A stretch of DNA of 22,741 nt from Candidatus Jordarchaeales archaeon. Its GTDB lineage: Archaea > Asgardarchaeota > Jordiarchaeia > Jordiarchaeales > Freyrarchaeaceae. The DNA lies in contig JAWAHN010000004.1 of NCBI GenBank assembly GCA_038889235.1, forward strand, positions 1 through 22,741, written 5' to 3'. Shown here in pieces: positions 3,676 to 22,741 of the stretch. Each line of letters begins with the position of its first letter. The stretch's first letter is position 1. Both the position numbers and the translations under genes were made by a program. Under the pieces are notes generated by a model that made no database searches, was not told where the DNA came from, and saw only the letters and a program-made list of their open reading frames with translations.

Positions 3676-4854
3676 GTGGCCCTATACTCTTCTCTTAGGT
3701 TTCAGGAGGTGGATTTGTTGAAGGCGGATTTGAGTGTTTTGAGTGAGTCTCCCTTATCTTTAACACAGGTGGTTAGTGACGAGACTTTAATGAAGTTTTA
3801 TGGGAAAAGCTTGCTGCTGCTCGGTCCCCCCGGTGTGGGGAAGAGTGAGACTGTCAGGCGTGTTGCGGAAAAACTTGCTGAGCGGATGGGGTTGAGGTTT
3901 GTGGAGCTGGTGGACGAGGTCGAGGTCGACGGGGATGTTTTCTTGTTTTACGATTTGAGGTTGACGGAGGTTGAGCCGACGGATCTTGTCGGGTTCCCGG
4001 TGGTTGGGGATTGCGTGGTTTACAAGCCTTTGAAGTGGGCGGTGCTCTTCAGCAGACATCCGGGTGTCCTGTTTTTGGACGAGTTGACTAATGTGAACCG
4101 TGAGGATGTTTTGACTGCTGCTTACAGGATTATTCATGAGCGGCGGGTTGGGGATGTCAGGTTTCACCCTGGGGTTTGGGTTATCGCTGCTGGTAATGTG
4201 CCGGAGCATAGTAGTGTGGCTAGGATGCTTCCGGCCCCGTTGGTTAACAGGATGATTGTGGTTAAGTTTCCGGTGCCTAGTGTTGACGAGTGGGCGAGGT
4301 ACATGGATGAGAAATATGGGCAGGAGTGGGATAGGAGGGTTTTAGCGTATCTTAAAGTGTTTCCCAGGGATTTTCTCCATGTTCCGGGTTCGGAGACTTT
4401 GGATAATTTTCCGACGCCGCGTTCTTGGACGGAGGTGGCTTTGTTCTTGCCGAAGGTTTGGGGGGATCCGCACGCTGTGAACGTGCTCTGTAGGGGGTGT
4501 CTTGGGGAGAGTGTTGGAGGAAAGTTCCTTGCTTTCCTTAAGATGGAAGTGCCGGATATCGATGAGATTTTGGAGAAGCCTCAAGTGTTTGGTAAGCTTG
4601 GGGTTGAGCAGCGCCACTTGTTGTGCACCGCTTTAGCCGACTGGTTGAAGGCTGACTTTAACAGGAGGGCTGTGAGGGCTCTTCCCCTCTTGAAGTTGAT
4701 GCTCTCTGAGAGCAGGGAGATGTTCATGTTCCTCGCCTCTGTTATGGGTAAGAGGTATGCCGAGAAGCTTTACAGGTTTCTGCACCACGAGGCTAGGGAC
4801 CTCTTGATGCCGCTTCTCGAGCAAGTTGCGGAGTTTGCTGATCCTATTTTGTAG
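3676..4854 (+). CDS. MoxR/AAA_5-type AAA+ ATPase
   Basis: Walker A GPPGVGKS, helix-2 insert YDLRLTEVEPTDLVGFP, Walker B VLFLDE, sensor-1 IAAGN, Arg finger LVNRM. The real start may be TTG 3715 or 3718 after RBS GGAGGTG. Confidence 0.9.
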   Translation: MALYSSLRFQEVDLLKADLSVLSESPLSLTQVVSDETLMKFYGKSLLLLGPPGVGKSETVRRVAEKLAERMGLRFVELVDEVEVDGDVFLFYDLRLTEVEPTDLVGFPVVGDCVVYKPLKWAVLFSRHPGVLFLDELTNVNREDVLTAAYRIIHERRVGDVRFHPGVWVIAAGNVPEHSSVARMLPAPLVNRMIVVKFPVPSVDEWARYMDEKYGQEWDRRVLAYLKVFPRDFLHVPGSETLDNFPTPRSWTEVALFLPKVWGDPHAVNVLCRGCLGESVGGKFLAFLKMEVPDIDEILEKPQVFGKLGVEQRHLLCTALADWLKADFNRRAVRALPLLKLMLSESREMFMFLASVMGKRYAEKLYRFLHHEARDLLMPLLEQVAEFADPIL

Positions 4855-4897
4855 GGTGGTGGGTGCTGGGCTGCGCAGTTTTAAGGGGGTGGTGGGT

Positions 4898-6115
4898 GTG
4901 AAGTATTGGGACGTGGCTGAGGATCTGCGTTCTATATGCACGGCGCTGTTTGGGGTTGTCCCGTGGATTTCCGCCTTTCTTATGAAGCTTAGGGTGGTCG
5001 GTGTAGAGGACATGCCGTGCGATGGGGCGGTCAACGATATGGGTGTGTTGTTCATAAACGTTAGCTCCTGGCGTAGGGCTTCGATGAGTGAAAAGGTGTT
5101 CATCTTGCTTCACGAGGCGTTGCACGTCGCGCTTAAACACTTTGCCAGGGCGAGGAACATCCTCGACAGGGAGGGAAAGGTAAACCTCGTGCTTTTCAAC
5201 GTGGCTTGCGATCTAGTGATTGATGACATGCTTATCATGGACCGCGCGCTTACGAGGTCGCTCGCGAAAGTCTCCGGGAAACACTTTTACTCGCTCTTGT
5301 CGAAGGTGGCATGCACAGACGTGAAGTATCGTTTTGGTATGTCGTGCGAGGAAATTTACCACTTGTTGCTTAGGAAGGTTAAAGTGGTACCCGATATCAC
5401 CATCGACCTCTGCTTTGACACAACGTATGGAGAGGAGGACGTCATACAGGAGGGGTCGCCTGAAATCTATTCCAAGCCAAGCTGGATGGATGTTGCAAGT
5501 AGGATTGAGAGCGTGTTGAGGAGCATAGAAGTATGCTTTGGAGGTCTTAGTGGCTGTGGGGGGTATATGGTCGCCGAGGAGTTACTGAAGCCGAAGATTA
5601 ACTGGAGGGCTGAGCTCAGGGAGAGCATACGCCGCGGGGTGGGGCGCAATGTTGTGTCGACTTGGACTAAGCGGCACAGAAAGCTTCCCGGGCTCGCACC
5701 GGGGATAGTTATGCTCAGGCGCCCCGACATCTATTGCTTGGTCGACGTTAGTGGGAGCATAAGCCAGAATATGGTGAACCAGTTTTTCACCGAGATTTTC
5801 ACCGCTGCGCGTCTTTCCAAGGTTCACGCCGTGTTCTTCGACGAAAAGGTTAGAGGGGTTTTCAGGGTGAGGCCCGGCATTATACCAAGGGTGGAGGGGG
5901 GAGGCGGCACGGTGATCAGCCCGGCTCTCAGTCTGGTCTACAAGAAGGCGCGCCGAGGCGACATAGTCGTCGTGCTCACGGACGGGCTCGTCTCCGACGA
6001 GCGGAAGCAGGATAAATGGCTGAGGAAGTTGGCTTCAAAGGTGGGGGAGGTGATTTATTGTTCAACAGCAAGGTTCCCCAATGTTGAGGTTAAAAAGGTG
6101 AAGTTGGAGGTGTAA
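4898..6115 (+). CDS. HExxH metallopeptidase plus vWA domain protein (DUF2201-like), partner of the AAA+ ATPase
   Basis: FILLHEALHVALKH and NVACDLVID at the N-terminus. vWA MIDAS residues LVDVSGSIS, GGGGT and VVLTDG at the C-terminus. Start reassigned to GTG 4898 (the track ORF from 4826 overlaps the ATPase). Confidence 0.88.
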   Translation: MKYWDVAEDLRSICTALFGVVPWISAFLMKLRVVGVEDMPCDGAVNDMGVLFINVSSWRRASMSEKVFILLHEALHVALKHFARARNILDREGKVNLVLFNVACDLVIDDMLIMDRALTRSLAKVSGKHFYSLLSKVACTDVKYRFGMSCEEIYHLLLRKVKVVPDITIDLCFDTTYGEEDVIQEGSPEIYSKPSWMDVASRIESVLRSIEVCFGGLSGCGGYMVAEELLKPKINWRAELRESIRRGVGRNVVSTWTKRHRKLPGLAPGIVMLRRPDIYCLVDVSGSISQNMVNQFFTEIFTAARLSKVHAVFFDEKVRGVFRVRPGIIPRVEGGGGTVISPALSLVYKKARRGDIVVVLTDGLVSDERKQDKWLRKLASKVGEVIYCSTARFPNVEVKKVKLEV

Positions 6116-6120
6116 GGGGT

Positions 6121-7050
6121 TTGTCGTCCTCTTATTTCCATACCGGAAACACACGTAAACGGGACGAGTTCGACCCACACTTCGAGCGACTCATGGCCCG
6201 CCTCGGAATGAGCTTCAGGTGCAGTGTGTGCGGGCGCAGGCACGAGAGTGACTGGAATGCATGCTACGGGAAGGCAATCAAGATCATAGACCAGTATCTC
6301 TTAATGGAGAACGTTCTTCAAATGATTACGTGTGTCAGAAAATTGAAAGAGATGGGTGAAAGTGAGGGCGACAATCCCGCCGGCAATTTCTGGAGTATTT
6401 TCAACCCGCTTAGCCAGCGCGTTGCCCCCGTGCTCTTGAGGGGTGTAGCGGGGTTGAACGTCGCAATTAAGGTGGCTAGTGAAGTGGCTGCGGAGTATGC
6501 TGCGTCCTTCGGCGTCAAAGCCGAAGAGCTTGTCAGTTACCTTGAAGACCCGTGGAGGTTCCGTGAGAATTTCCTGAGCAACGCTATAATAGATTTCACA
6601 CTCCTCGTAGATCTACCAAGTATGGTCAATCTTGTCAAGAAGTACGCTGAAGTTGTCGAGGTTGTGAATAAGAGGATTTTAGAGGCGGTTGAAGCACTCC
6701 CTGAGGCTAGAGTTGAGGAAGTGAAGAGGAGCAAAAATGGGTATATAAGCATGGTTAAGTTTGGCGGCCTGACCCTGCCGAGCAAGGTGATCATCAAATG
6801 CATATTCCCTTCTGTTTTTGAAGCCGACCTGCCGGTGAGACGAGTGAGTCTCCTCCAGGTTGATGAAGGGTTGAAGCATGCTGTAGTCTGGAGGAGCCTT
6901 GGGAAAAGGAAGCAGGTGAAGAAAGGTTGGCTGCTTGTCTCGCGAAGCAGAGTGGTTGCAGAGCTGAGCAAAGAAGAAGCAAAACTCGACATTTCAACTC
7001 TCGTTTCAAAGTATTTGCGCTCAGAACGTGTGCAGGGTGAGTGTTTGTAG
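6121..7050 (+). CDS. Hypothetical protein with N-terminal CxxC-x3-H-x6-C zinc-finger-like motif
   Basis: 309-aa ORF 5 nt after the vWA gene, with CSVCGRRHESDWNAC and natural amino-acid composition. No family recognised. Confidence 0.75.
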   Translation: MSSSYFHTGNTRKRDEFDPHFERLMARLGMSFRCSVCGRRHESDWNACYGKAIKIIDQYLLMENVLQMITCVRKLKEMGESEGDNPAGNFWSIFNPLSQRVAPVLLRGVAGLNVAIKVASEVAAEYAASFGVKAEELVSYLEDPWRFRENFLSNAIIDFTLLVDLPSMVNLVKKYAEVVEVVNKRILEAVEALPEARVEEVKRSKNGYISMVKFGGLTLPSKVIIKCIFPSVFEADLPVRRVSLLQVDEGLKHAVVWRSLGKRKQVKKGWLLVSRSRVVAELSKEEAKLDISTLVSKYLRSERVQGECL

Positions 7051-13027: not shown

Positions 13028-13078
13028 TTCTATGAAATGAAAATATATTCTTGAAGGTTGAGTTTCACTATAGCGAAA
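13028..13078 (+). promoter_or_regulatory. csa3 promoter with a 16-bp palindromic operator candidate
   Basis: TTCTATGAAATGAAAATATATT (13028-13049), then TTTCACTA|TAGCGAAA (13063-13078; arms match 7/8) just before RBS GGGGTG. Confidence 0.5.
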
Positions 13079-13093
13079 GTGGGGTGTTTTGGC

Positions 13094-13723
13094 TTGGCGG
13101 GTGTTGGTAGGAGCACGGTGATAGTTGCGTCGCTTGGGTTTGAGGAGCGCTTCCTTCTAAGGGCGGTCGTGAGGAGGGGTGTTAGGGAGCGCGACAAGGT
13201 TGTTGTCTTTATGCCTGAGAGGGGGGATCCACGGGGGGAGAAGGCGTTCCAGACGTTGAGGGAGCTCGTGGAGAAGGCGTTTCCACAGGTGGAGGTTATC
13301 AAGTACGAGGTTGACGTCCAGGATTTTTATGGTGCGGTGAGTAAGATTAGGGGTATTCTGAAAGAGTTAGCCTTGGAGGGAGACTTGGTGTTCAACTTGA
13401 GTGGGGGCCAGAGGTTGTTGATACTCGAAATACTGGCGGCTGCGCTAAGCCTTGGGGTTAACGCGGAGCTTGAGGTTGAGACCGAGGACTCCTCTGGCTA
13501 CGTGGCTGTCCCGTTGAAAGTCATGCACCCGTTGGATGTGGACAACGTTGACCAGGAAATACTGAGGAGGGCCGTGAGTGGGGTGAGGCTCAAGGACTTG
13601 GAGCATTTGAGTGTGTCGAAGGCGACCCTTTGGAGGAAGCTAAAAAGGCTGACGGAGGAAGGGCTCCTTGAAATGGATAGGGACAAGTACAAGCTAAGCG
13701 ATTTAGGGCGGATGTGGATATGA
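13094..13723 (+). CDS. csa3: Csa3 CARF-wHTH transcriptional regulator
   Basis: VASLGFEERFLLRAV, FNLSGGQRLLI and a C-terminal wHTH (SKATLWRKLKRLTEEGLL). Divergent from the I-A operon. Start at TTG 13094 (RBS GGGGTG) or GTG 13118. Confidence 0.9.
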   Translation: MAGVGRSTVIVASLGFEERFLLRAVVRRGVRERDKVVVFMPERGDPRGEKAFQTLRELVEKAFPQVEVIKYEVDVQDFYGAVSKIRGILKELALEGDLVFNLSGGQRLLILEILAAALSLGVNAELEVETEDSSGYVAVPLKVMHPLDVDNVDQEILRRAVSGVRLKDLEHLSVSKATLWRKLKRLTEEGLLEMDRDKYKLSDLGRMWI

Positions 13724-13949: not shown

Positions 13950-13957
13950 TTTATAAG
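13950..13957 (+). promoter_or_regulatory. TATA box of the RNA ligase gene
   Basis: TTTATAAG 23 nt before ATG 13981, a leaderless spacing. Confidence 0.5.
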
Positions 13958-13980: not shown

Positions 13981-15015
13981 ATGAGCGCTGAGGATGTTTT
14001 GGCTAAAGCCTTAAGCTACTTGAAGAAGTGCGGTTGCAGGGTTGAAGTCGCTGGTAGTGAAGTGGAGAGGGTGGTTGAGCTTTTCAGGAAGGGGTTTGGG
14101 GGGCGGCCGAGGATTAAGCCATACCACATAGACCCTCCGAGCCCGGCGCTTTACTCCTACCTTGATGAGGTTAGGCCCGTTGTTTACGCCGAGCAGAAGT
14201 TTGATGGCACCCACATTCAGGTCTCGGATGTCGGGCTTTTCAAGCATGATGGGGGTCCTCTGTCCAACGACCAGCTTGGCGGGCTGCTGTACGTGGCCGC
14301 GGTGGAGCCGAGGAAGGCTGGAAGTGTTCTTGACATGGTTGAGGAGGGTTACGTTGTTGAGCTAGAACTCTTTGGCAGCAAGTACACTCCTATGGGCTTC
14401 CATAGGGATTACGAGAAGCCGTTCGACTTGGTGGTTTTCGAGGTGGGGTTAGAGGGCAAGTGGGTTCCCCCACCGGAGAAGTACGATGTTCTGAAGAGGT
14501 TTGGTGTTCCATGCCCGCAGAGCGTTAGGGTGGACTACAGGGATGCCTACCACTTAAAGGAGGAGGCTGAGAGGATAGCTGAGAGGCCGGACTGGTTTGA
14601 GGGGGCGGTTTTCAAGGCTCCTTTCAAGCCGACTGTCGGCTTATACTTGAAGGAGTACGTTAAGACTGGGAGCATGATAGTGTTCAAGGTGAAGAAAAGG
14701 GTGGAGAAGAGGGAGGAGAGGGCGAAGCCGAGAGTGGAGGAGGAGAGGAGGGTTGCCCCCGTGTCTGAGGTTTACCGGGAGTTGAGGGATGAGGCTTTGA
14801 ACGAGGCTGCGAAGATAGCGGTGGAGAGGGGGGAGGATTACGTTGGAGACGTGCGAAACACGGGTGTGCTCATCGAAACCATAGTGAGGAGCATATGTGA
14901 GGCCCACCCGGCTCTCGTTGAGAGGTTCAAGGCTGACGGGTTCACGGAGAGGGACCTAAGGAAGGTTGTAGGGGAAGCATTGATGGAAGCTAGGAGGAGG
15001 ATGGCGAGGCGCTGA
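13981..15015 (+). CDS. ATP-dependent RNA ligase-like nucleotidyltransferase (Rnl2-like)
   Basis: Motif I EQKFDG, III ELELFG, IIIa LVVFEV, IV FEGAVFK, V FKVKK. The helical C-terminal domain (KIAVERGEDYVGDVRNTGVLIETIVRSICE) resembles the Rnl2 C-domain. No OB-fold DNA-ligase domain is evident. Start moved from 13957 to ATG 13981. Confidence 0.8.
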   Translation: MSAEDVLAKALSYLKKCGCRVEVAGSEVERVVELFRKGFGGRPRIKPYHIDPPSPALYSYLDEVRPVVYAEQKFDGTHIQVSDVGLFKHDGGPLSNDQLGGLLYVAAVEPRKAGSVLDMVEEGYVVELELFGSKYTPMGFHRDYEKPFDLVVFEVGLEGKWVPPPEKYDVLKRFGVPCPQSVRVDYRDAYHLKEEAERIAERPDWFEGAVFKAPFKPTVGLYLKEYVKTGSMIVFKVKKRVEKREERAKPRVEEERRVAPVSEVYRELRDEALNEAAKIAVERGEDYVGDVRNTGVLIETIVRSICEAHPALVERFKADGFTERDLRKVVGEALMEARRRMARR

Positions 15016-15094: not shown

Positions 15095-16345
15095 CTAAGT
15101 GAATATCCTAATTTTTTCTATTTCTTGCGCCCTCTCTTCTCCTAGGAGCATTCTCACTATTTCCATGGCTTTCTCGACGGCTTTCTTCGCGTTTTCCTCG
15201 TCTACGCTCGCGTACCCGTGCTCGAGCTTCGAGTTGTTTCGGAGGTTTGACACGAACTGGAGGTTCTTCACGACCTCATCTATCTGGCTTATCGGGTTGA
15301 TGATGTTGAGCAGCTGAAGACCCTTCCACAGCGTCAGGTGTTCAGGCGGGTTTTCTTCGCACTCCAGCTTCCTGAGGACCTCCCGGCTGTTTGGTATCTG
15401 CTGCCAGTTTACGTTCCAGGGATTCACCTTGTTCTCGAGCAGCCTCAGCTGAACGGCGGCTTCGACCGCTCTGTAGGCTCTGAGGACTGCTTCAGCGTAC
15501 TGCCTCGTCTTAAGCCTCCTCTCAGCGTTCGCAAGGAACTCGAGTGGGGCGAGGTGCCCGTCCTCGGTGCTGAGCTCCGCTCCCCTGTTCTGGCAATCCT
15601 TCAGCGCCTTCAAGGCTTTGACGAGACGGTTTCCTATGCTTCTAAGCTTGACCACGTTTTCCGGTATCCTGCCTAGGGCCTGGAGCGGTAGGAGCGCTTC
15701 TGCTTCGCTGCCGATTTCATTGATTATTTTCACAGCCTCCTCGTGTTCGAACGAGTCCCACAGCCAGAGGGCGGTGCACGCCTTTTTGAGGAACGTGTAT
15801 GTGTCAGGGAGCTCCTTCGAGCGCTCGAGCGCGAGGTAGAACTGGTAGCTTTCCACGTACGCCACAACCCTGTCGGCGACCTCTTCAACAGCCGTTTTGT
15901 AGTCTTTCTTGACAACCATGCGTCCACTGACGCGCCCTCTATCGTCCCTGACTGCTCCCCCAACGTACTCGAAGACCACCTTGAAGGGGGCCCTAGTGGC
16001 GAACACGTGGAAGGCTGCAGCAGACAGGGGCTTCGTTCCGCCGGTGAAGTTGACTATCACTTCGCCCGCCTTCATGTCCGCCAGCTCTTTGACCAATTTT
16101 TTGAACGCCTCAACACATAAACTAACGTCTTCGGGGTCTTCCACCTCAAGCCGCACTACCTTCTTCTCCATGGCCCCAGCGTAGTCCAGCACTCTCCTAG
16201 CCACGTCTAAAGGGCTTGGATGCTGGCCGGGGAACGGGCGGCCGTGCACGAGGTAGACGAGGTCAACGTCGTTGGTTTTGACCGACTCTACTATCGGCTC
16301 GTGAGTCGTTCCGACCGTTGCAACTAGCACCCTCACAGAACCCAC
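15095..16345 (-). CDS. CARF-HEPN cOA-activated ribonuclease (TIGR02710/Csm6-like)
   Basis: CARF motifs LVATVGTT and VNFTGGTKPLS, a helical middle region (ANAERR...AVLRAYRAVE) and the HEPN motif RNNSKLEH (Rx6H). Alternative start GTG 16336. Confidence 0.88.
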   Translation of the reverse strand: MGSVRVLVATVGTTHEPIVESVKTNDVDLVYLVHGRPFPGQHPSPLDVARRVLDYAGAMEKKVVRLEVEDPEDVSLCVEAFKKLVKELADMKAGEVIVNFTGGTKPLSAAAFHVFATRAPFKVVFEYVGGAVRDDRGRVSGRMVVKKDYKTAVEEVADRVVAYVESYQFYLALERSKELPDTYTFLKKACTALWLWDSFEHEEAVKIINEIGSEAEALLPLQALGRIPENVVKLRSIGNRLVKALKALKDCQNRGAELSTEDGHLAPLEFLANAERRLKTRQYAEAVLRAYRAVEAAVQLRLLENKVNPWNVNWQQIPNSREVLRKLECEENPPEHLTLWKGLQLLNIINPISQIDEVVKNLQFVSNLRNNSKLEHGYASVDEENAKKAVEKAMEIVRMLLGEERAQEIEKIRIFT

Positions 16346-16384: not shown

Positions 16385-17053
16385 CTACCCCTTTTCCTGG
16401 AGGAGGTCTCTCTTGAGGTCGTCCGGTGAGATTATCCAGATTAGCTTTTTCTGTTTTTCGTAAACGTACACGAGTGGAACCTTGAGGGCTGTGGCCATCT
16501 TGTAAAAGGCTATAGTGGCAGGCTTCGTTGCCGCCGTGCAGTCCATGACAACCTTGTAGTCTCTCATCAACTCCTCAAGCTTCCCGCGCACCCTCTCCTC
16601 AACCGAGTCCACGTTCGTTATCTCCTGGTCTGACAACAGCACCCACTCAGCCCTAACGGACGCTTTCTCCCAGTCCGAGGCGGCCCTGTAAGTCGTGACC
16701 ACAACAACCTTAGACGGTTTAACCCCCTCCATCTCCAGGAGCTTGACCGCTGTGTCGGTCTCAGCTTCCTTCCTCTCACCCCTCTCGCCGAGAAGCCCGA
16801 AGTAAGCGTACTCGCACGGCGCATCAAAAAGATAAAATAAGGGGGTCTTGACGGCGAGCTTGATGAAGCCACGCCCAACCCTAACCACAAGTCCACCTTT
16901 CTCGAGCAGCCTAAGGTTGTACTCCAACGTCGACCTAGGAATCCCCGTCTCCCTTGCCACCTGGCTGAAGTTCGCCTCGCCCCCGCTGAGCGCCAACGCT
17001 TTCAGGATGGCTCTAGCCTTCCTTCTGAGAAGTAGGTTGTAATCCACCCTCAA
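16385..17053 (-). CDS. N-terminal ArsR-like wHTH plus C-terminal CARF domain protein
   Basis: wHTH FSQVARETGIPRSTLEYNLRLLEKGGLV. CARF-like AYFGLLG...KVVVVTT...VMDCTAATKP...PLVYVYE. Confidence 0.8.
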   Translation of the reverse strand: MRVDYNLLLRRKARAILKALALSGGEANFSQVARETGIPRSTLEYNLRLLEKGGLVVRVGRGFIKLAVKTPLFYLFDAPCEYAYFGLLGERGERKEAETDTAVKLLEMEGVKPSKVVVVTTYRAASDWEKASVRAEWVLLSDQEITNVDSVEERVRGKLEELMRDYKVVMDCTAATKPATIAFYKMATALKVPLVYVYEKQKKLIWIISPDDLKRDLLQEKG

Positions 17054-17133
17054 GGAAAGACCTCCCTGAACAAGTGTGAGCGGCGTGACTGGACTTCCAA
17101 GCTAGAAAGGGGGTGCTGTGTCCCGTTAGGGGT

Positions 17134-17979
17134 TTAGGTCTGGCTGGGCTTCTTCGACCCCCAGAAGTCTTCAACGGACTTCCAGAGTACTTTCCCCATC
17201 TCGGTTGGGTACACCTCCCCTTCCTTCTCTTCAGCCCATCCGAGCCTTATAGCGTGGTCCACTATCTTCTTACCGTACTGTCTTTCGAGCGCGGTCCTCG
17301 CGGTAGACCCGACGGTGACAAGGCCGCCTATGAGGGATGTTAAATTCTCCCACCTTCTAAACTTGACAGGCATCGCCGGTATGCGTATCACCTTCCTGAA
17401 GTGCTCGTGAACGTAGAACACCGGAGCACCTGTTCCAGGAGAGTTTGCCGCGAGGATAGCTATCGCCGCCTCGGGTTTGAAACCCCCAGTCGCGTGGACG
17501 TACACCCTGTCCCCCTCCTCCTTGTGGTATCTTATGATGTTGGTTATCATGCTGAACAAGTTCGCTAGCCCGTCGTTGAAAGTGTCCGGCTTACCTAGCC
17601 CTAGAACTTTGGCGGTTTTCACTGACACCCTCCCGCCGTACTCCTCTGACGAAAGCTTCTCCAGGCACAGCTTCAAAACCTCGGAGCACACTTCTCCTAT
17701 CATGGTGTCCGAGAATAACAGGTAAACCCACTGCTGCATTTTAGACTCGTAGCCTTCCACCAGCAGGTCGAATATGGTGTTAAGCTCGGCGCTCGCATCC
17801 CTCGGATTCTTCAAAACGAAGTCTACCAGCTTATCGACAAGCTCTTCCTTGCTCAGCCTCCCGTCAGCGAGCATTTTCTCGACTTCCGGCAGAGCTGCAC
17901 TGATGACCCCAACCCTTTGCGCGTTCGTAACTATCGAGGCGCCAACAAGAACAACGTGCGCTAAACCCGCCAAAAACAA
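17134..17979 (-). CDS. APE2256/SSO1393-family CARF protein (putative cA4 ring nuclease) with C-terminal wHTH
   Basis: VGASIVTNA, SAELN, LLFSDT..GEVC, FNDGLANL, HATGGFKPE and YVHEHF motifs. SSO1393 is a characterised ring nuclease. Probable start TTG 17973. Confidence 0.88.
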   Translation of the reverse strand: MFLAGLAHVVLVGASIVTNAQRVGVISAALPEVEKMLADGRLSKEELVDKLVDFVLKNPRDASAELNTIFDLLVEGYESKMQQWVYLLFSDTMIGEVCSEVLKLCLEKLSSEEYGGRVSVKTAKVLGLGKPDTFNDGLANLFSMITNIIRYHKEEGDRVYVHATGGFKPEAAIAILAANSPGTGAPVFYVHEHFRKVIRIPAMPVKFRRWENLTSLIGGLVTVGSTARTALERQYGKKIVDHAIRLGWAEEKEGEVYPTEMGKVLWKSVEDFWGSKKPSQT

Positions 17980-18022: not shown

Positions 18023-18344
18023 CAGCTGGATTTCTCGAAGCCGGAACACCTCGCCTTCCACGAAAACACCCAAAAACTCCCCGGGGAGACTCATAGCCAT
18101 GCGAACACACGCCCGTGAACACCCCGGGTCTGAGAGCACCGTTCACGCTTGATGCTTCAACGGTCGACCGCAGCGACGCAAACACCAGGATACGAGTTGG
18201 AAAATAGTGCCAAAAATTCGGTCCATTATTGAACAATTATACAAAAATTTTTCTATCAATGATTTTTTGTTCCAGCAATCTTTATATTTGTAAAAATAAC
18301 TTATACTACTCTGTTTGAGATCCATCCCTCTTGGAGGAGAAGAT

Positions 18345-21300
18345 ATGGATTACTGGGATGGTAAGATAGCAGGCCTTCTCCATGACCCTCTCGACAAAGT
18401 TTTCAGGGCAAACCACGAGGTTTTCGCGGAAAATGTCGCGTCAATGGTTCTGGCTGGATCTAAGGTTGACGTTAATGGTATTGTAAAGGCGATTAAAACC
18501 CACCACTTGGGTGGATACTTGAGATTCCCCGATATGGCTGCGTCCGCATCTAACAGGACTCTTATCCCCTCTGTCAATCCCAGCAGGGTTCTGCTTCAAA
18601 ACCCATTCTCCGGGGTCTTGTTCGACTTAGGTCTCTTACCCCCATTCTCGCTGAGTAGCAACGTTCAGTCTGTCACAAGCCTAGCTGCTGGCGCCACTGG
18701 GAAAGAGGCTGCACTCCGCGTGCTGAGTAGACTTATCAATGTTTACATGAACATTTGGAAGGGCGGGGTTAAAAGCGTCGAAAAATCGCTTCTTTTGATC
18801 CCCGAGGACACGCGTATTCCCTCGTCGCCCATGATTTCCCACCTTCAGATGACCAGCGCGCTGACGGACGTCGCCGAGACCCTGGGCTTCTACATGGTCT
18901 ACATTGACATAGGCGGGGTCCAGGAGTTCATCTCTGTTTCGAGGAGGACTGTTGACTTTTGGGCCTCAAGCTACCTTGTGTCCCTCGTCAGCCTCTCAGC
19001 ACTCCTCCCGCTCGTGAGAAAGTTTGGCCTCCAGCAGGTTATCATCCCGTGGTGCCTCCGCTCACCCCTCGTGGAGACCTGCCTTTCCGGCGAAAAGATA
19101 AGCTTGGACGACGTTTTGAGCTCAACTATCCCAAACTCCGCGCTGGTGCTACTCAAGGGTACACCGGACGGCGACTTAAATGAAGAAGAGATAAGGAAAA
19201 TGATCCATGACGGTATGACCGAGTTTTGGAGCGGTGTTTGCGACGTTTTCCTCGAAAAGCTAAGAAATGATTACGGTGTTAGTGAGGAGGTGGAGAGGCA
19301 AATCAGGAGACAGATGGAGTTCTCATCCATTTTCACCAGGATTAGAGTGGCTGTTTTAAACACTAGAGACCTTTTAGAAGGTAAGGGGGAGGTGTGTGTT
19401 AGAGATGTTTACAAGAGGGCGCGCGAGGAGGGAGGGTTTGACCGGCTGGCCGAGCTCAAGAACAAGCTTGCAGAGCTCGGGTTGGGTTATGAAAGCTACC
19501 CGCTTGAGGATTTCGAGGCCATAATGAAAACCCTCACCGTAGTTATGGGGTCGCGGAAACAGTATGAGGCTTTTAGCGCGGAGACTGTTCCCAGGGGGAG
19601 GGTTAAGTGCAGCCTGTGCGGCGTACGCGACCACCTTGGGTTCAGCGATGAAGCGTGGAGCAAGATGGAGGAGAAGGTAGTCGACCGTGGTGAGCGGCTC
19701 TGCGCTATCTGCCTACTGAAGAGAGTTTTCAGGGACATTCTGCCAAAAGTCATAGAGAAGCTTGGTGGAAAGATGGATGCTAGTGGGAGCAGGTTTAAGG
19801 TACCATCTGTGAGCGACGTCGCGACAACTTGGTTCAGGGCTTCGGTGCTCTCACTCATCCTAGCAGCCGTCGAGCTCAACCGGCTTGACGAAGTCCAAGA
19901 AGCGGCCAAAAAGATTTTAGAATACCTGGATAAAGCCGGCGAGCTCGCCGGGGAGAAGTGGGAGACGAGTGAGCGAGTCTTCCCGAACAAGCTGATCGAG
20001 CAACTCTACGACAAGATTTTAAAGAAGCTCTCCAAGGTGGCCGAGAATAGGGATTTGCAGGCTAAGGTGGGTGTTCTTTCGAAGCTTGCGGACGCGATGT
20101 GTTTTGCAAGCTCCTCGATCCTGCTGTTAGAAGAGCTGACCGCGAGAGCCATCCGTTCAGGTATGCCGAGGCAGATGTTGGAAGGGGTCGAGGAGAGCCA
20201 TAATGATGCGATCAGAGCACTCAGGAAGCTTTACGAGAGGAAGCCGGATCTCCTCGAGGCGGCGTCCAAGAAGCTCTTTGAGCAGGTTTGCTCCCTCCTA
20301 AAGCTAAGCGGCTCTGGTCAACAAGTTAGCTCGAAGATTGCTGAAGTCATACTATCGCCCATCCAGAGGAATTGTGAAATTCTCGCGAAAAAGGCTGCGA
20401 AACAAGAACAGCCCCCATTGATGGGGATTGAAAAGAAAAAGGAGGTTAAGAAGCTCCCAGTGCCGGTCAGCTTTCTCCCACAGAACAGGTTTGCCCTCCT
20501 TAGAATGGACGGTGACGACGTTGGGAAGTGGATTAGCGGCGAGCTCCTCCCGCCATGGCAGATACTGATTGCACCCACCAACGAAGACCAGACGACAGAA
20601 CATCGAAAAATGCTTAAGAGGAAAGCTGGCGACGACTTTGGCGACGTTTACTCCAGGCATAGGACTATCTCGCCCTCAACGCTCTCCGTCCTCTCTATGG
20701 TCATCTCCTCCAACGTTCCAGTCGTGAAGTCTGTGGTGGAGGCATTCGGCGGCTTCCTAGTTTACACTGGAGGGGACGACGTGCTGGCTTTCCTCCCGCC
20801 AGAGGTCTGGCACTACGTCTACCTGCTTCTCAGGTTCCTCTACTCCAGGGAGATAATGGACTGCTTCAAGCTAGACAATGATTGGCTCTACGTTTACGGA
20901 ATGGGAGCGAGGGCGACTGCATCATTCTCTGTGATCGTGGCACACCACAAGGCGCACTTGAAACAGGTCATAAGACGCTCGCAGGAACTGCTCGATCGCC
21001 TGGCAAAGGAGCTGGTGAGGAAGGGGGCAGAGGGGGGCGTCAAGGTGAAGGATGGGCTCTCCGTGGTTTTGATGTCTAGGTCGGCTCCAACAGTGACGGC
21101 CCGCGCCATACCAAACATGCTGGTTAGGAGCGGGGGCAGAAATCTTTCCATCAGGGAGCTCGACGAGAGGGCCAAAAGGGAAGCTAAGGGTAAGATCACG
21201 GCGATGGATAGTGGTGTTGTGGAGTTATGGAAGGACACGTTTACCCCTATAATCAAGGCGGTTTACGGGCAAGATGCACGCACGAGCGCGTACAGGGACG

Positions 21301-21773
21301 TCTACGGTAAGGCTTCGGACCTTTACTTCGCCGGGGTGGCGCCAGACCCAGGCGGAATAATAGACTGGGAGACGGTTAGTGCTCCCGGCGGAGTGACGGA
21401 CGGCGTTGTTTACACACCGCTATCGGACGCTATCGCCTTATGCGACCTCGTCGCGTCTGGAACTGTGAGCTCGGAGGCATTCTACAAAATACACGAACTT
21501 TACGAGGAAATAACGAGCGGAAAGATAGGGCAGGAGGACTTGAACGCTAGGCTCACCGTTCTTCGCGCCGAAATCAAACACAAGCTTAGGAAGAAGGACG
21601 AGGAGGGATATCCGGTGGCAGAAGTGCTCTTAAAGTCTGTGGAGAAGTTTATGTCCGAAGAGTTCCTTATTGGTGAAGGGGGGGAGGCATTGAGTCTTCT
21701 CGAGGTTGTCCCGCTTTCGCTTGTGCTTTCAAGGTGTTTGGAGAACACAGTTTTAAGTCTCGGAGGGTGGTAG
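18345..21773 (+). CDS. cas10: Type III-B Cas10/Cmr2 (HD, Zn finger, two Palm domains, intact GGDD)
   Basis: H13D14 (LLHDP), C422xxC425 and C453xxC456, RMDGDD (D722), YTGGDD (809-812). ATG 18345 after GGAGGAG, 1142 aa, followed by cmr3. Confidence 0.96.
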   Translation: MDYWDGKIAGLLHDPLDKVFRANHEVFAENVASMVLAGSKVDVNGIVKAIKTHHLGGYLRFPDMAASASNRTLIPSVNPSRVLLQNPFSGVLFDLGLLPPFSLSSNVQSVTSLAAGATGKEAALRVLSRLINVYMNIWKGGVKSVEKSLLLIPEDTRIPSSPMISHLQMTSALTDVAETLGFYMVYIDIGGVQEFISVSRRTVDFWASSYLVSLVSLSALLPLVRKFGLQQVIIPWCLRSPLVETCLSGEKISLDDVLSSTIPNSALVLLKGTPDGDLNEEEIRKMIHDGMTEFWSGVCDVFLEKLRNDYGVSEEVERQIRRQMEFSSIFTRIRVAVLNTRDLLEGKGEVCVRDVYKRAREEGGFDRLAELKNKLAELGLGYESYPLEDFEAIMKTLTVVMGSRKQYEAFSAETVPRGRVKCSLCGVRDHLGFSDEAWSKMEEKVVDRGERLCAICLLKRVFRDILPKVIEKLGGKMDASGSRFKVPSVSDVATTWFRASVLSLILAAVELNRLDEVQEAAKKILEYLDKAGELAGEKWETSERVFPNKLIEQLYDKILKKLSKVAENRDLQAKVGVLSKLADAMCFASSSILLLEELTARAIRSGMPRQMLEGVEESHNDAIRALRKLYERKPDLLEAASKKLFEQVCSLLKLSGSGQQVSSKIAEVILSPIQRNCEILAKKAAKQEQPPLMGIEKKKEVKKLPVPVSFLPQNRFALLRMDGDDVGKWISGELLPPWQILIAPTNEDQTTEHRKMLKRKAGDDFGDVYSRHRTISPSTLSVLSMVISSNVPVVKSVVEAFGGFLVYTGGDDVLAFLPPEVWHYVYLLLRFLYSREIMDCFKLDNDWLYVYGMGARATASFSVIVAHHKAHLKQVIRRSQELLDRLAKELVRKGAEGGVKVKDGLSVVLMSRSAPTVTARAIPNMLVRSGGRNLSIRELDERAKREAKGKITAMDSGVVELWKDTFTPIIKAVYGQDARTSAYRDVYGKASDLYFAGVAPDPGGIIDWETVSAPGGVTDGVVYTPLSDAIALCDLVASGTVSSEAFYKIHELYEEITSGKIGQEDLNARLTVLRAEIKHKLRKKDEEGYPVAEVLLKSVEKFMSEEFLIGEGGEALSLLEVVPLSLVLSRCLENTVLSLGGW

Positions 21774-21774
21774 T

Positions 21775-22741
21775 CTGCCGGATAAAGGGACATTCTTGGA
21801 AGTGGTGATGAAGCCGCGGGGGGAGCTGCTCTTCAGGACCCCAACCCCCTTTGCCCTCGGAGGATACGCTGAGACGCAGCCGCGTCCATCCGAGTTTAGT
21901 GTGGCCGGAATGCTGCGCTCAGCCATAATGGACCTATCGGAGGAGAAGGACATTCCCAAGGACGTTTTGGAGGAAATCCTAGGGAAGGCGAAGGGGTACA
22001 CTACCTACGACTTCTGCTGGAAACTAGTTGGGCCATACTTCCTAAAAGGTGACAGTGAGGTCTTCTATCCGATCCCACTAGACGTGTTCGTAATCGAAGA
22101 AGAGGGGGCACGCATACGCCTAGCTGACTGGCTTATCCCACAACTGGAGGAGGTGAATGGAGGGTTCAGGGAGTTACTGGCCCCGTCGGCGTTTAAGGGT
22201 GAGAGCGCACGAAAAAGGTACTGGCTTGTCAGCTCGAAGTTCATGAAGAAGTACCTTGACGGAGAGAGGGGGTTTGACGAGAAGGAGGCGGTTAGAGGCG
22301 GAGACGTCTACAGGCTGAAGACGCACCCCCACGTGAAGCTGAGCAGAGAGACTAAAACGGTTGAGGTGGTAGGCGGGGAGGGAATGTACTTCGCTGTTGA
22401 GAGGCTAGTCCTCAGGGATGGCTGGTCTTTCATAGCCGGGGTGCAGCTCGACAACTGCGGGAAGCCGGATAAAGTTAAGGAGGTATTCCTCAACTTAAAC
22501 GGAACTATTGCCAGGCTTGGCGGAGAGGGCGGGCTAGTGGAGTTAGAGGTTAGGGAGGCCAAATCACTTCTAGAGGCGGAAGCAGGGGGTAATGTTGGAG
22601 ACGGGGGTAGGGTCAGGCTTGTGCTGACTTCTTCGGCGGTCTTCGGGGACGGCAGCAGGTCCTCGTTCCTACCAAATCTGAGTGGTGTGAAGGGCTGCGC
22701 TTGCGCACGTGTTGCCGTCGGGGGTTGGGATTATGTGGCTA
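21775..22741 (+). CDS. cmr3: Type III-B Cmr3 (partial; runs off the window end)
   Basis: Manually translated open frame absent from the ORF track: FLEVVMKPRGELLFR, KLVGPYF, YPIPLD, RLGGEG, LVLTS, GGWD. Start uncertain (CTG 21775, TTG 21796 or ATG 21808). Confidence 0.92.
   Translation, partial: MPDKGTFLEVVMKPRGELLFRTPTPFALGGYAETQPRPSEFSVAGMLRSAIMDLSEEKDIPKDVLEEILGKAKGYTTYDFCWKLVGPYFLKGDSEVFYPIPLDVFVIEEEGARIRLADWLIPQLEEVNGGFRELLAPSAFKGESARKRYWLVSSKFMKKYLDGERGFDEKEAVRGGDVYRLKTHPHVKLSRETKTVEVVGGEGMYFAVERLVLRDGWSFIAGVQLDNCGKPDKVKEVFLNLNGTIARLGGEGGLVELEVREAKSLLEAEAGGNVGDGGRVRLVLTSSAVFGDGSRSSFLPNLSGVKGCACARVAVGGWDYVA

Follow-up and report, generated by a model that had tools for sequence, protein, structure and literature searches.

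The stretch of DNA analyzed here (the window) is 22,741 nucleotides long and represents the whole 22.7-kb contig C4 of the 2.14-Mb, 8-contig genome of a Candidatus Jordarchaeales archaeon (GCA_038889235.1). DNA of the window is also present in hot-spring metagenome sequencing runs. A gene for an ATP-dependent RNA ligase lies within a CRISPR locus of the window, between csa3 and a gene for a CARF-HEPN RNase. The enzyme is an RNA-ligase-type covalent nucleotidyltransferase with intact motifs and belongs to a rare, patchy, and undescribed archaeal clade, while its association with CRISPR, seen in two independent lineages, is weak as it stands. The features of the gene and of its product are the following, those without nucleotide positions being read from an AlphaFold model.

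13981-15015, + strand: ATP-dependent RNA ligase gene, 344 aa from the ATG, recognized by its motifs, PF09414, and predicted fold
13950-13956, + strand: TATA box TTTATAA of the ligase gene, 25-31 nt 5' of the ATG
14197-14208, + strand: motif I, K73-F-D75-G76, which bears the adenylylated lysine; K73, D75, and G76 invariant in 25 relatives
14365-14376, + strand: motif III, E129-L-F-G132; E129 and G132 invariant
14599-14616, + strand: motif IV, E207-G208-A-V-F-K212; E207, G208, and K212 invariant
14686-14694, + strand: motif V, K236-V-K238; K236 and K238 invariant
14761-15012, + strand (aa 261-344): family-specific helical C-terminal domain (C-domain), a bundle in the AlphaFold model; E271, E275, K278, H309, and P310 invariant
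aa 1-40: two N-terminal helices
aa 41-242: nucleotidyltransferase (NTase) core
aa 243-260: disordered Lys/Glu-rich linker

Motifs, family, and expression of the ligase

The conservation of the motifs was read from a 25-sequence family alignment. The ligase carries motifs I (KxDG with the catalytic lysine), III, IIIa, IV, and V of the covalent nucleotidyltransferase superfamily, and all five, which a first-pass annotation made from the sequence alone had already reported, were invariant or nearly so across the 25 relatives. Motif IIIa lies around F153-E154, with F153 nearly invariant; Y48 and H141 are invariant as well, and P47 and H49 nearly so.

RNA_ligase (PF09414) was the only Pfam match of the protein, at 27.6 bits against a cut-off of 27, and neither NCBIfam nor PHROGs held a family for it. 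A single-sequence search of solved structures gave FliG as its sole match, which was rejected as arising by chance, and a profile search of solved structures gave weak matches (8uce among them, at E 0.004), some of them deposited as DNA ligases. A full HMMER scan of 1.84 billion proteins recovered 26 representatives of the family at E<=1e-3, and 6 of 400 genomes from the phylum were positive for the family in a profile search; NCBI labels one of the orthologues a "hypothetical protein". A six-frame search of the genome itself with PF09414 missed the ligase and cannot show the absence of a second RNA ligase or of an Rnl3.

An alternative in-frame GTG at 13957 overlaps the TATA box, and all relatives begin at the MS(A/V)EDVL start. 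The claim that the gene has its own TATA box was borne out, as the orthologues of the G003-type genomes and of G004 (a genome of another genus) carry TTTATA(A/T) at the same distance from the start; the remaining upstream DNA is not conserved. The box would serve a leaderless or near-leaderless mRNA, and the gene is monocistronic. It has no operon link to cas genes, being convergent with the CARF gene and having its own promoter, and it was never found in a cas operon at the loci examined. In one metatranscriptome library, contigs of a ~97%-identical strain cover the ligase gene at 14149-14592 and 14828-14991 and parts of the CARF-HEPN gene and of the Cas_APE2256 gene described below, the last with the highest depth; none covers csa3. 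This signal, which consists of contigs without strand information, weakly hints that the ligase, CARF-HEPN, and APE2256 genes are transcribed. No raw reads of the metatranscriptome runs X6 and X8 fell on the locus, and X6 is therefore uninformative.

Predicted fold and comparison with known RNA ligases

The AlphaFold model of the ligase had a pLDDT (predicted local distance difference test) of 90.6. When the core was aligned structurally with 48,161 PDB representatives, the best match was the Rnl5 ligase of Naegleria gruberi, NgrRnl (5cot; Z 14.1, root-mean-square deviation 3.0 over 177 aa), followed by T4 Rnl2 (1s68) and TbREL1 (1xdn), both at Z 12.5, T4 Rnl1 at Z 11.7, and Rnl3, Trl1, and DNA ligases at about Z 10. 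Foldseek returned 96 matches of the model at E<=1e-3, ligases foremost. Only the NTase core aligned to solved structures, and not the end modules. The C-domain folded alone, with a pLDDT of 97.2, gave no significant solved-structure match in either VIA or Foldseek: the best VIA matches (Z 7.3) were unrelated helical proteins, with 2hvr_A not among the best 50 rows, and Foldseek placed T4 Rnl2 (2hvr_A) in the top row, but with an E of 1.9 and a template modeling (TM) score of 0.43-0.49. The structural check proposed in the first-pass annotation pointed to Rnl5, Rnl2, and REL1 as the nearest relatives of the core and left the C-domain without a significant match.

Among the known families, Rnl5 (NgrRnl and Deinococcus DraRnl) is the nearest in its core and has the same KxDG motif I. 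However, the Rnl5 enzymes have an N-terminal domain and no C-domain (PMC4408790, PMC7261155), whereas the present ligase has only two short N-terminal helices (~40 aa) together with an 85-aa helical C-domain, an architecture that places it outside Rnl5. With Rnl2 (T4 Rnl2 and trypanosome REL1) it shares the order of NTase core, flexible linker, and all-helical C-domain of ~85 aa, with an NTase Z of 12.4-12.5 and PF09414 as its sole Pfam family. The motif I signature of Rnl2 is KxHGxN, whereas the ligase has K73-F-D-G-T-H78, in which D75 is invariant, and so lacks this signature. Unlike Rnl2, moreover, the ligase gave no match to PF18043 (T4_Rnl2_C) and has ~38 extra N-terminal residues, and the invariant C-domain residues E271, E275, K278, H309, and P310 are peculiar to its own family. 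The earlier description of the protein as an Rnl2-like RNA ligase with an Rnl2-like helical tail was therefore right about the ATP-dependent RNA-ligase class and about a helical bundle in the same domain order, but the label was too specific, given the KFDGTH motif and a core at least as close to Rnl5, and the likeness in fold of the tail to the Rnl2 C-domain was not significant.

The Rnl3 ligases (Pyrococcus Pab1020 and MthRnl), which are homodimeric and circularize RNA, are likewise archaeal and similar in length, and 5d1o, 2vug, and 8uce were the top whole-chain Foldseek matches of the ligase (E about 1e-6). However, the whole-chain TM score was just 0.33-0.38, the NTase core alone aligned (Z 10.2-10.3), and the ligase shows neither a Lig_C (PF18330) match nor a dimerization domain. 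Since it is the domains attached to a common core that define the RNA ligase families (PMC6379707), the ligase is best described as a distinct clade: its domain order is Rnl2-like, its core resembles those of Rnl5 and Rnl2, its motif I has the KxDG form, and its end modules are its own. Its family-specific N- and C-terminal modules, together with the lack of a significant sequence match to solved structures, indicate that it probably represents a further RNA ligase clade. This clade, from thermophiles, is of interest both to enzymology and as a heat-stable tool.

The CRISPR locus and the neighborhoods of relatives

On the basis of Pfam and NCBIfam matches, the gene order begins with cas1, cas2, and cas4, which are followed by genes for a MoxR-type AAA ATPase, a DUF2201/VWA protein, and a 309-aa unknown protein. 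A minus-strand block then carries csaX, cas3'' (HD), cas3' (helicase), cas5, cas7/csa2, and csa5. After this block come csa3 and the ligase gene on the plus strand, the CARF-HEPN, HTH/weak-CARF, and Cas_APE2256 genes on the minus strand, and lastly cmr2/cas10 and cmr3 on the plus strand. This gene order indicates that type I-A and type III-B modules are joined in one locus. No CRISPR array was found in window 900-22741. The features around the ligase gene are listed below.

13058-13723, + strand: csa3 (CARF and HTH regulator), the upstream neighbor of the ligase; Csa3_N 4e-29
15095-16345, - strand: CARF-HEPN RNase of TIGR02710/Csm6-HEPN type; TIGR02710 8e-36, Csm6 HEPN 8e-13
16385-17053, - strand: HTH protein with a C-terminal part weakly CARF-like; HTH_20 6e-10, matches to Cas_APE2256 and TIGR02710 weak
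17134-17979, - strand: Cas_APE2256 CARF protein, candidate ring nuclease; PF09651 1e-32, NF040951 (ring nuclease) 2e-16, under its cut-off
18315-21773, + strand: cmr2/cas10 of the type III-B module; Cmr2_N 1e-19, Cas10 palm2 1e-16
21796-22740, + strand: cmr3, downstream of cmr2/cas10; Cmr3 2e-32

The Csa3_N and TIGR02710 matches confirmed the position of the ligase gene between csa3 and the CARF-HEPN gene, as first annotated. The CARF-HEPN gene is convergent with the ligase gene across a gap of 79 nt, and two more CARF-type genes adjoin it at 16385-17979. The genome of the window was found to hold 10 small HEPN genes.

About 50 loci carrying relatives of the ligase were gathered, in part with an alignment of 11 rows, and they represent ~16 lineages with a mutual identity of <=45%; tblastn and phmmer searches with the Cas proteins of the window were too insensitive for distant loci. 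In clade A, the family of the window, the tree is (G004,(L007,(window,G003))). The G003-type genomes, seen in at least six assemblies, have the ligase facing the same CARF-HEPN gene in convergent orientation, beside III-B. In this sister species, csa3 is separated from the ligase by a catalase-peroxidase gene, katG (729 aa), and a small pair of MNT/HEPN-like genes (L001:6484-9588), which indicates that this slot accepts unrelated cargo. In G004, a gap of 77 nt separates the ligase from a convergent gene for a CARF-PIN protein (L082:103-1602; PADLOC E 3.6e-144). Beyond it lie homologues of the MoxR, VWA, and unknown proteins and then csa3, with HD-Cas10 and RAMP genes ~11 kb off. BLASTP of this CARF-PIN against the CARF-HEPN of the window gave a marginal match in the CARF domain only (27% over 86 aa, E 0.052), and one effector seems to have replaced the other at this position. 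No conservation was found in the DNA between the ligase and CARF genes when the window and G004 were compared, and an exchange of cassettes in situ is not demonstrable.

A sub-lineage nested inside this CRISPR-linked clade, represented by L007 and G001, has the ligase amid housekeeping genes (DUF72, ECF transporter), and neither 10 kb of the upstream flank nor 3-7 kb of the downstream flank holds cas genes. The genome of the window has a matching housekeeping block on contig C3, without the ligase. The ligase is 64% identical to its L007 orthologue, within the range of the flanking housekeeping genes (62-80%), which fits vertical descent within the family. The copy in G001, of the same genus (L042, C68:13010-14032), is split over frames with in-frame stops and is either a pseudogene or an assembly error; Cas10 was not found in this genome, which is 73% complete.

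Outside the family of the window, linkage was observed once, in clade D (L034, 38% identity), where 2 kb and a VapB gene separate the ligase from Csx1 (TIGR01897, 3e-49) and a type III module. Two of the ~16 lineages (clades A and D) are therefore linked to CARF RNases, and the other 14 had no Cas or CARF protein among their 118 neighbor open reading frames (ORFs) within 5 kb in a PADLOC search. The matches among these ORFs were TnpB, pAgo, MADS, and bare HTH; a PADLOC "Csx1" proved to be a TnpB/Cas12f-like protein and a "Csa3" covered the HTH only, and neither was counted as a CRISPR link. A survey of orthologue linkage had been set in the first-pass annotation as a test of its CRISPR proposal, and the orthologues turned out to be mostly unlinked. 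Nor is the ligase confined to genomes with type III systems: the carriers G401 and G403 had no Cas10 match (their completeness is not given), and, in reverse, G002, which belongs to the genus of the window and is 83% complete, has Cas10 and no ligase match. In two further carrier genomes, Cas10 and the ligase are on different contigs.

Among the neighbors in these lineages, a DUF3782/PD-(D/E)XK protein recurs, such recurrent neighbors being members of abundant families. The distant lineage F has an MNT/HEPN pair of toxin-antitoxin-like genes 0.1-0.7 kb past the ligase on its downstream side (L039:11115-11851, L049:11335-12059), followed in L049 by a TnpB-like gene, and lineages D and E have PIN or VapB genes in the vicinity of the ligase. 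A distant branch (P0020, P0021, and P0028, at loci L084, L086, and L087; 26-30% identity) is found on contigs with long co-directional runs of packed small ORFs without Pfam matches, one of which carries a DNA methyltransferase; these contigs look like fragments of viruses, plasmids, or other mobile elements.

Candidate roles of the ligase and other features of the window

The reading we favor, and to which we give roughly even credence, is that the ligase is a general, dispensable RNA-repair enzyme carried in a defense island. The gene product would be an active ATP-dependent polynucleotide ligase of a rare archaeal clade. By the chemistry of its superfamily, Lys73 would attack ATP to form ligase-AMP, the AMP would be passed to a 5'-phosphate end, and a 3'-OH would attack the adenylylated end and seal the break. 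Because nick-sealing enzymes (Rnl5, Rnl2, and REL1) are the nearest relatives of the core, the ligase would most likely act on nicks within structured or duplex RNA, for example tRNA or rRNA. We infer that the ligase acts on RNA rather than DNA, that it seals nicks, and that it has no dedicated CRISPR role. Its place between csa3 and the CARF-HEPN gene would then reflect co-location in an island, inherited within one archaeal family, and not membership of the cyclic oligoadenylate (cOA) pathway. Patchy accessory genes often sit in variable defense islands. No signal-sensing domain (CARF, SAVED, or similar) was found in the ligase with Pfam or NCBIfam, and the main texts of the type III accessory surveys PMC6546367 and PMC11229360 mention no ligase.

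Several observations weigh against this reading. The ligase was placed beside type III CARF RNases in two phylogenetically separate lineages, A and D, and the RNases that adjoin it are of three unrelated kinds, CARF-HEPN, CARF-PIN, and Csx1. Within clade A, the adjacency of ligase and CARF gene persists between genera, although the synteny of G004 and the window is otherwise scrambled. The G001 copy, located away from CRISPR genes, appears to be broken, in a genome that is 73% complete and gave no Cas10. In lineages D, E, and F, moreover, the ligase has small HEPN or PIN toxin genes in its vicinity. By a rough estimate, the chance of lying within a few kb of a CARF gene is 1.5-3% per lineage, so that linkage in 2 of 16 lineages would arise by chance with a probability of about 0.03-0.1, which is suggestive. 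Patchy accessory genes favor variable islands anyway.

The strongest alternative, which we regard as possible though distinctly doubtful, is that the ligase is a recovery arm of type III signaling, which was also the first inference drawn from the sequence. After the cOA has been degraded, the enzyme would reseal host tRNA, rRNA, or mRNA nicked by the CARF RNase, acting alongside the ring-nuclease-like CARF protein (17134-17979) and pairing interchangeably with CARF-HEPN, CARF-PIN, and Csx1. Its location next to CARF-HEPN in the window and G003, CARF-PIN in G004, and Csx1 in L034, in two independent lineages, speaks for this reading, and the retention of this adjacency across genera despite scrambled synteny points the same way, as do, weakly, the metatranscriptome contigs on the ligase, CARF-HEPN, and APE2256 genes and not on csa3. 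The 14 unlinked lineages of the ~16, the carriers without Cas10, and the same-genus genome with Cas10 and no ligase argue against it, as does the lack of an operon link or of a healing enzyme nearby.

The chemistry of the RNA ends also bears on this recovery role. The ends left by HEPN RNases, a 2',3'-cyclic phosphate and a 5'-OH, cannot be joined by this class of ligase, so the caveat raised at the outset, that the enzyme would need 3'-OH and 5'-P ends, stands, and the genome encodes elsewhere an RtcB, which joins HEPN-type ends directly. On the other side, the genome encodes a Clp1-type 5' kinase as well as a 2H phosphoesterase, which makes end healing in trans conceivable, and HEPN-type cuts would first be healed in this way before they are sealed. 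Pfam and NCBIfam confirmed that no healing kinase or phosphatase is present in the window, and none lies beside the ligase at any orthologous locus examined. Tpt1 was not found in the genome, which makes the yeast-type 2'-phosphate pathway unlikely. Metal-dependent PIN nucleases generally leave 5'-P and 3'-OH ends, although this is debated for some VapC toxins; if the CARF-PIN protein does so, its cuts would be direct substrates of the ligase.

A precedent for linking CARF proteins to RNA repair exists in the bacterial operons of RtcR (CARF) with RtcB/RtcA, in which a CARF sensor is tied to an RNA ligase that repairs RNase damage (PMC4012209, PMC7790460). However, RtcB is GTP-dependent and joins 3'-P or 2',3'>P to 5'-OH ends, with the CARF protein activating its transcription, whereas the present ligase is ATP-dependent and outside any operon and its CARF partners are RNases; the RtcB of this genome is encoded elsewhere. 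The logic of resealing RNA cut by a conflict RNase is likewise shared with T4 Pnkp-Rnl1 and bacterial Pnkp/Hen1 (Rnl4), but there the healing kinase/phosphatase is encoded with the ligase. If real, a ligase partnered with CARF RNases would give a testable answer to how cells recover, beyond the action of ring nucleases, from cOA-activated collateral RNA cleavage; no ATP-dependent RNA ligase would have been connected with CRISPR signaling before it, and it would also form a new RNA ligase clade.

It is improbable that the ligase is a counter-defense enzyme of viruses or plasmids that repairs RNA cut by host RNase toxins, with the chromosomal copies as captured or integrated remnants. T4 Rnl1 acts in this way. 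The distribution of the family is patchy, the distant branch P0020, P0021, and P0028 lies on contigs of packed small ORFs, one with a DNA methyltransferase, and the neighbors of the ligase in a protein atlas, which we take as a lead only, are mostly viral PF09414 clusters. Against this, searches of IMG/VR and of GenBank phage records turned up no relative, the ligase of the window is not flanked by an integrase or any other mobile-element gene, and the 64% identity to the L007 orthologue, compared with 62-80% for the flanking housekeeping genes, fits vertical descent.

We consider it very unlikely that the protein is not an RNA ligase in function, that is, that it seals nicks in DNA or transfers adenylyl groups to another acceptor. 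Its KxDG motif I is common to DNA ligases, and some of the solved structures that it matched weakly by profile were deposited as DNA ligase. However, one of these, 8uce, is titled RNA ligase in the fold library, the AlphaFold model has no OB domain, RNA ligases are the best structural matches, and RNA_ligase is the sole Pfam family match.

Slighter still is the likelihood that the ligase adenylylates, joins, or circularizes crRNA or linear oligoadenylates, an earlier suggestion that found no support: only its position in the locus speaks for it, whereas the protein has no cOA-binding domain such as CARF or SAVED, its core is nearest to nick-sealing ligases and not to Rnl3, most relatives have no CRISPR neighbors, and, to our knowledge, the products of ring nucleases and Cas10 do not offer the pair of 5'-monophosphate and 3'-OH that this chemistry requires. 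Archaeal Rnl3 ligases do circularize RNAs (PMC4797309).

Two further features of the window were noted. The first ~1000 nucleotides (1-~1000) are T/G-rich and of low complexity (GC skew 0.62, AT skew -0.78) and contain degenerate repeats resembling TGTTTTT; the ORFs reported for this first ~1 kb, for example 109-1515 on the minus strand, are probably spurious, and the region may be an assembly artefact at the contig end. The genes for the MoxR-type AAA ATPase, the DUF2201 metallopeptidase/VWA protein, and the 309-aa unknown protein lie at 3676-7050, within the I-A locus between cas4 and csaX, and homologues of the set, with the unknown protein present twice, adjoin csa3 in the CRISPR island of G004, in another genus (L037 13060-17915). 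These genes constitute a candidate conserved CRISPR-associated module.

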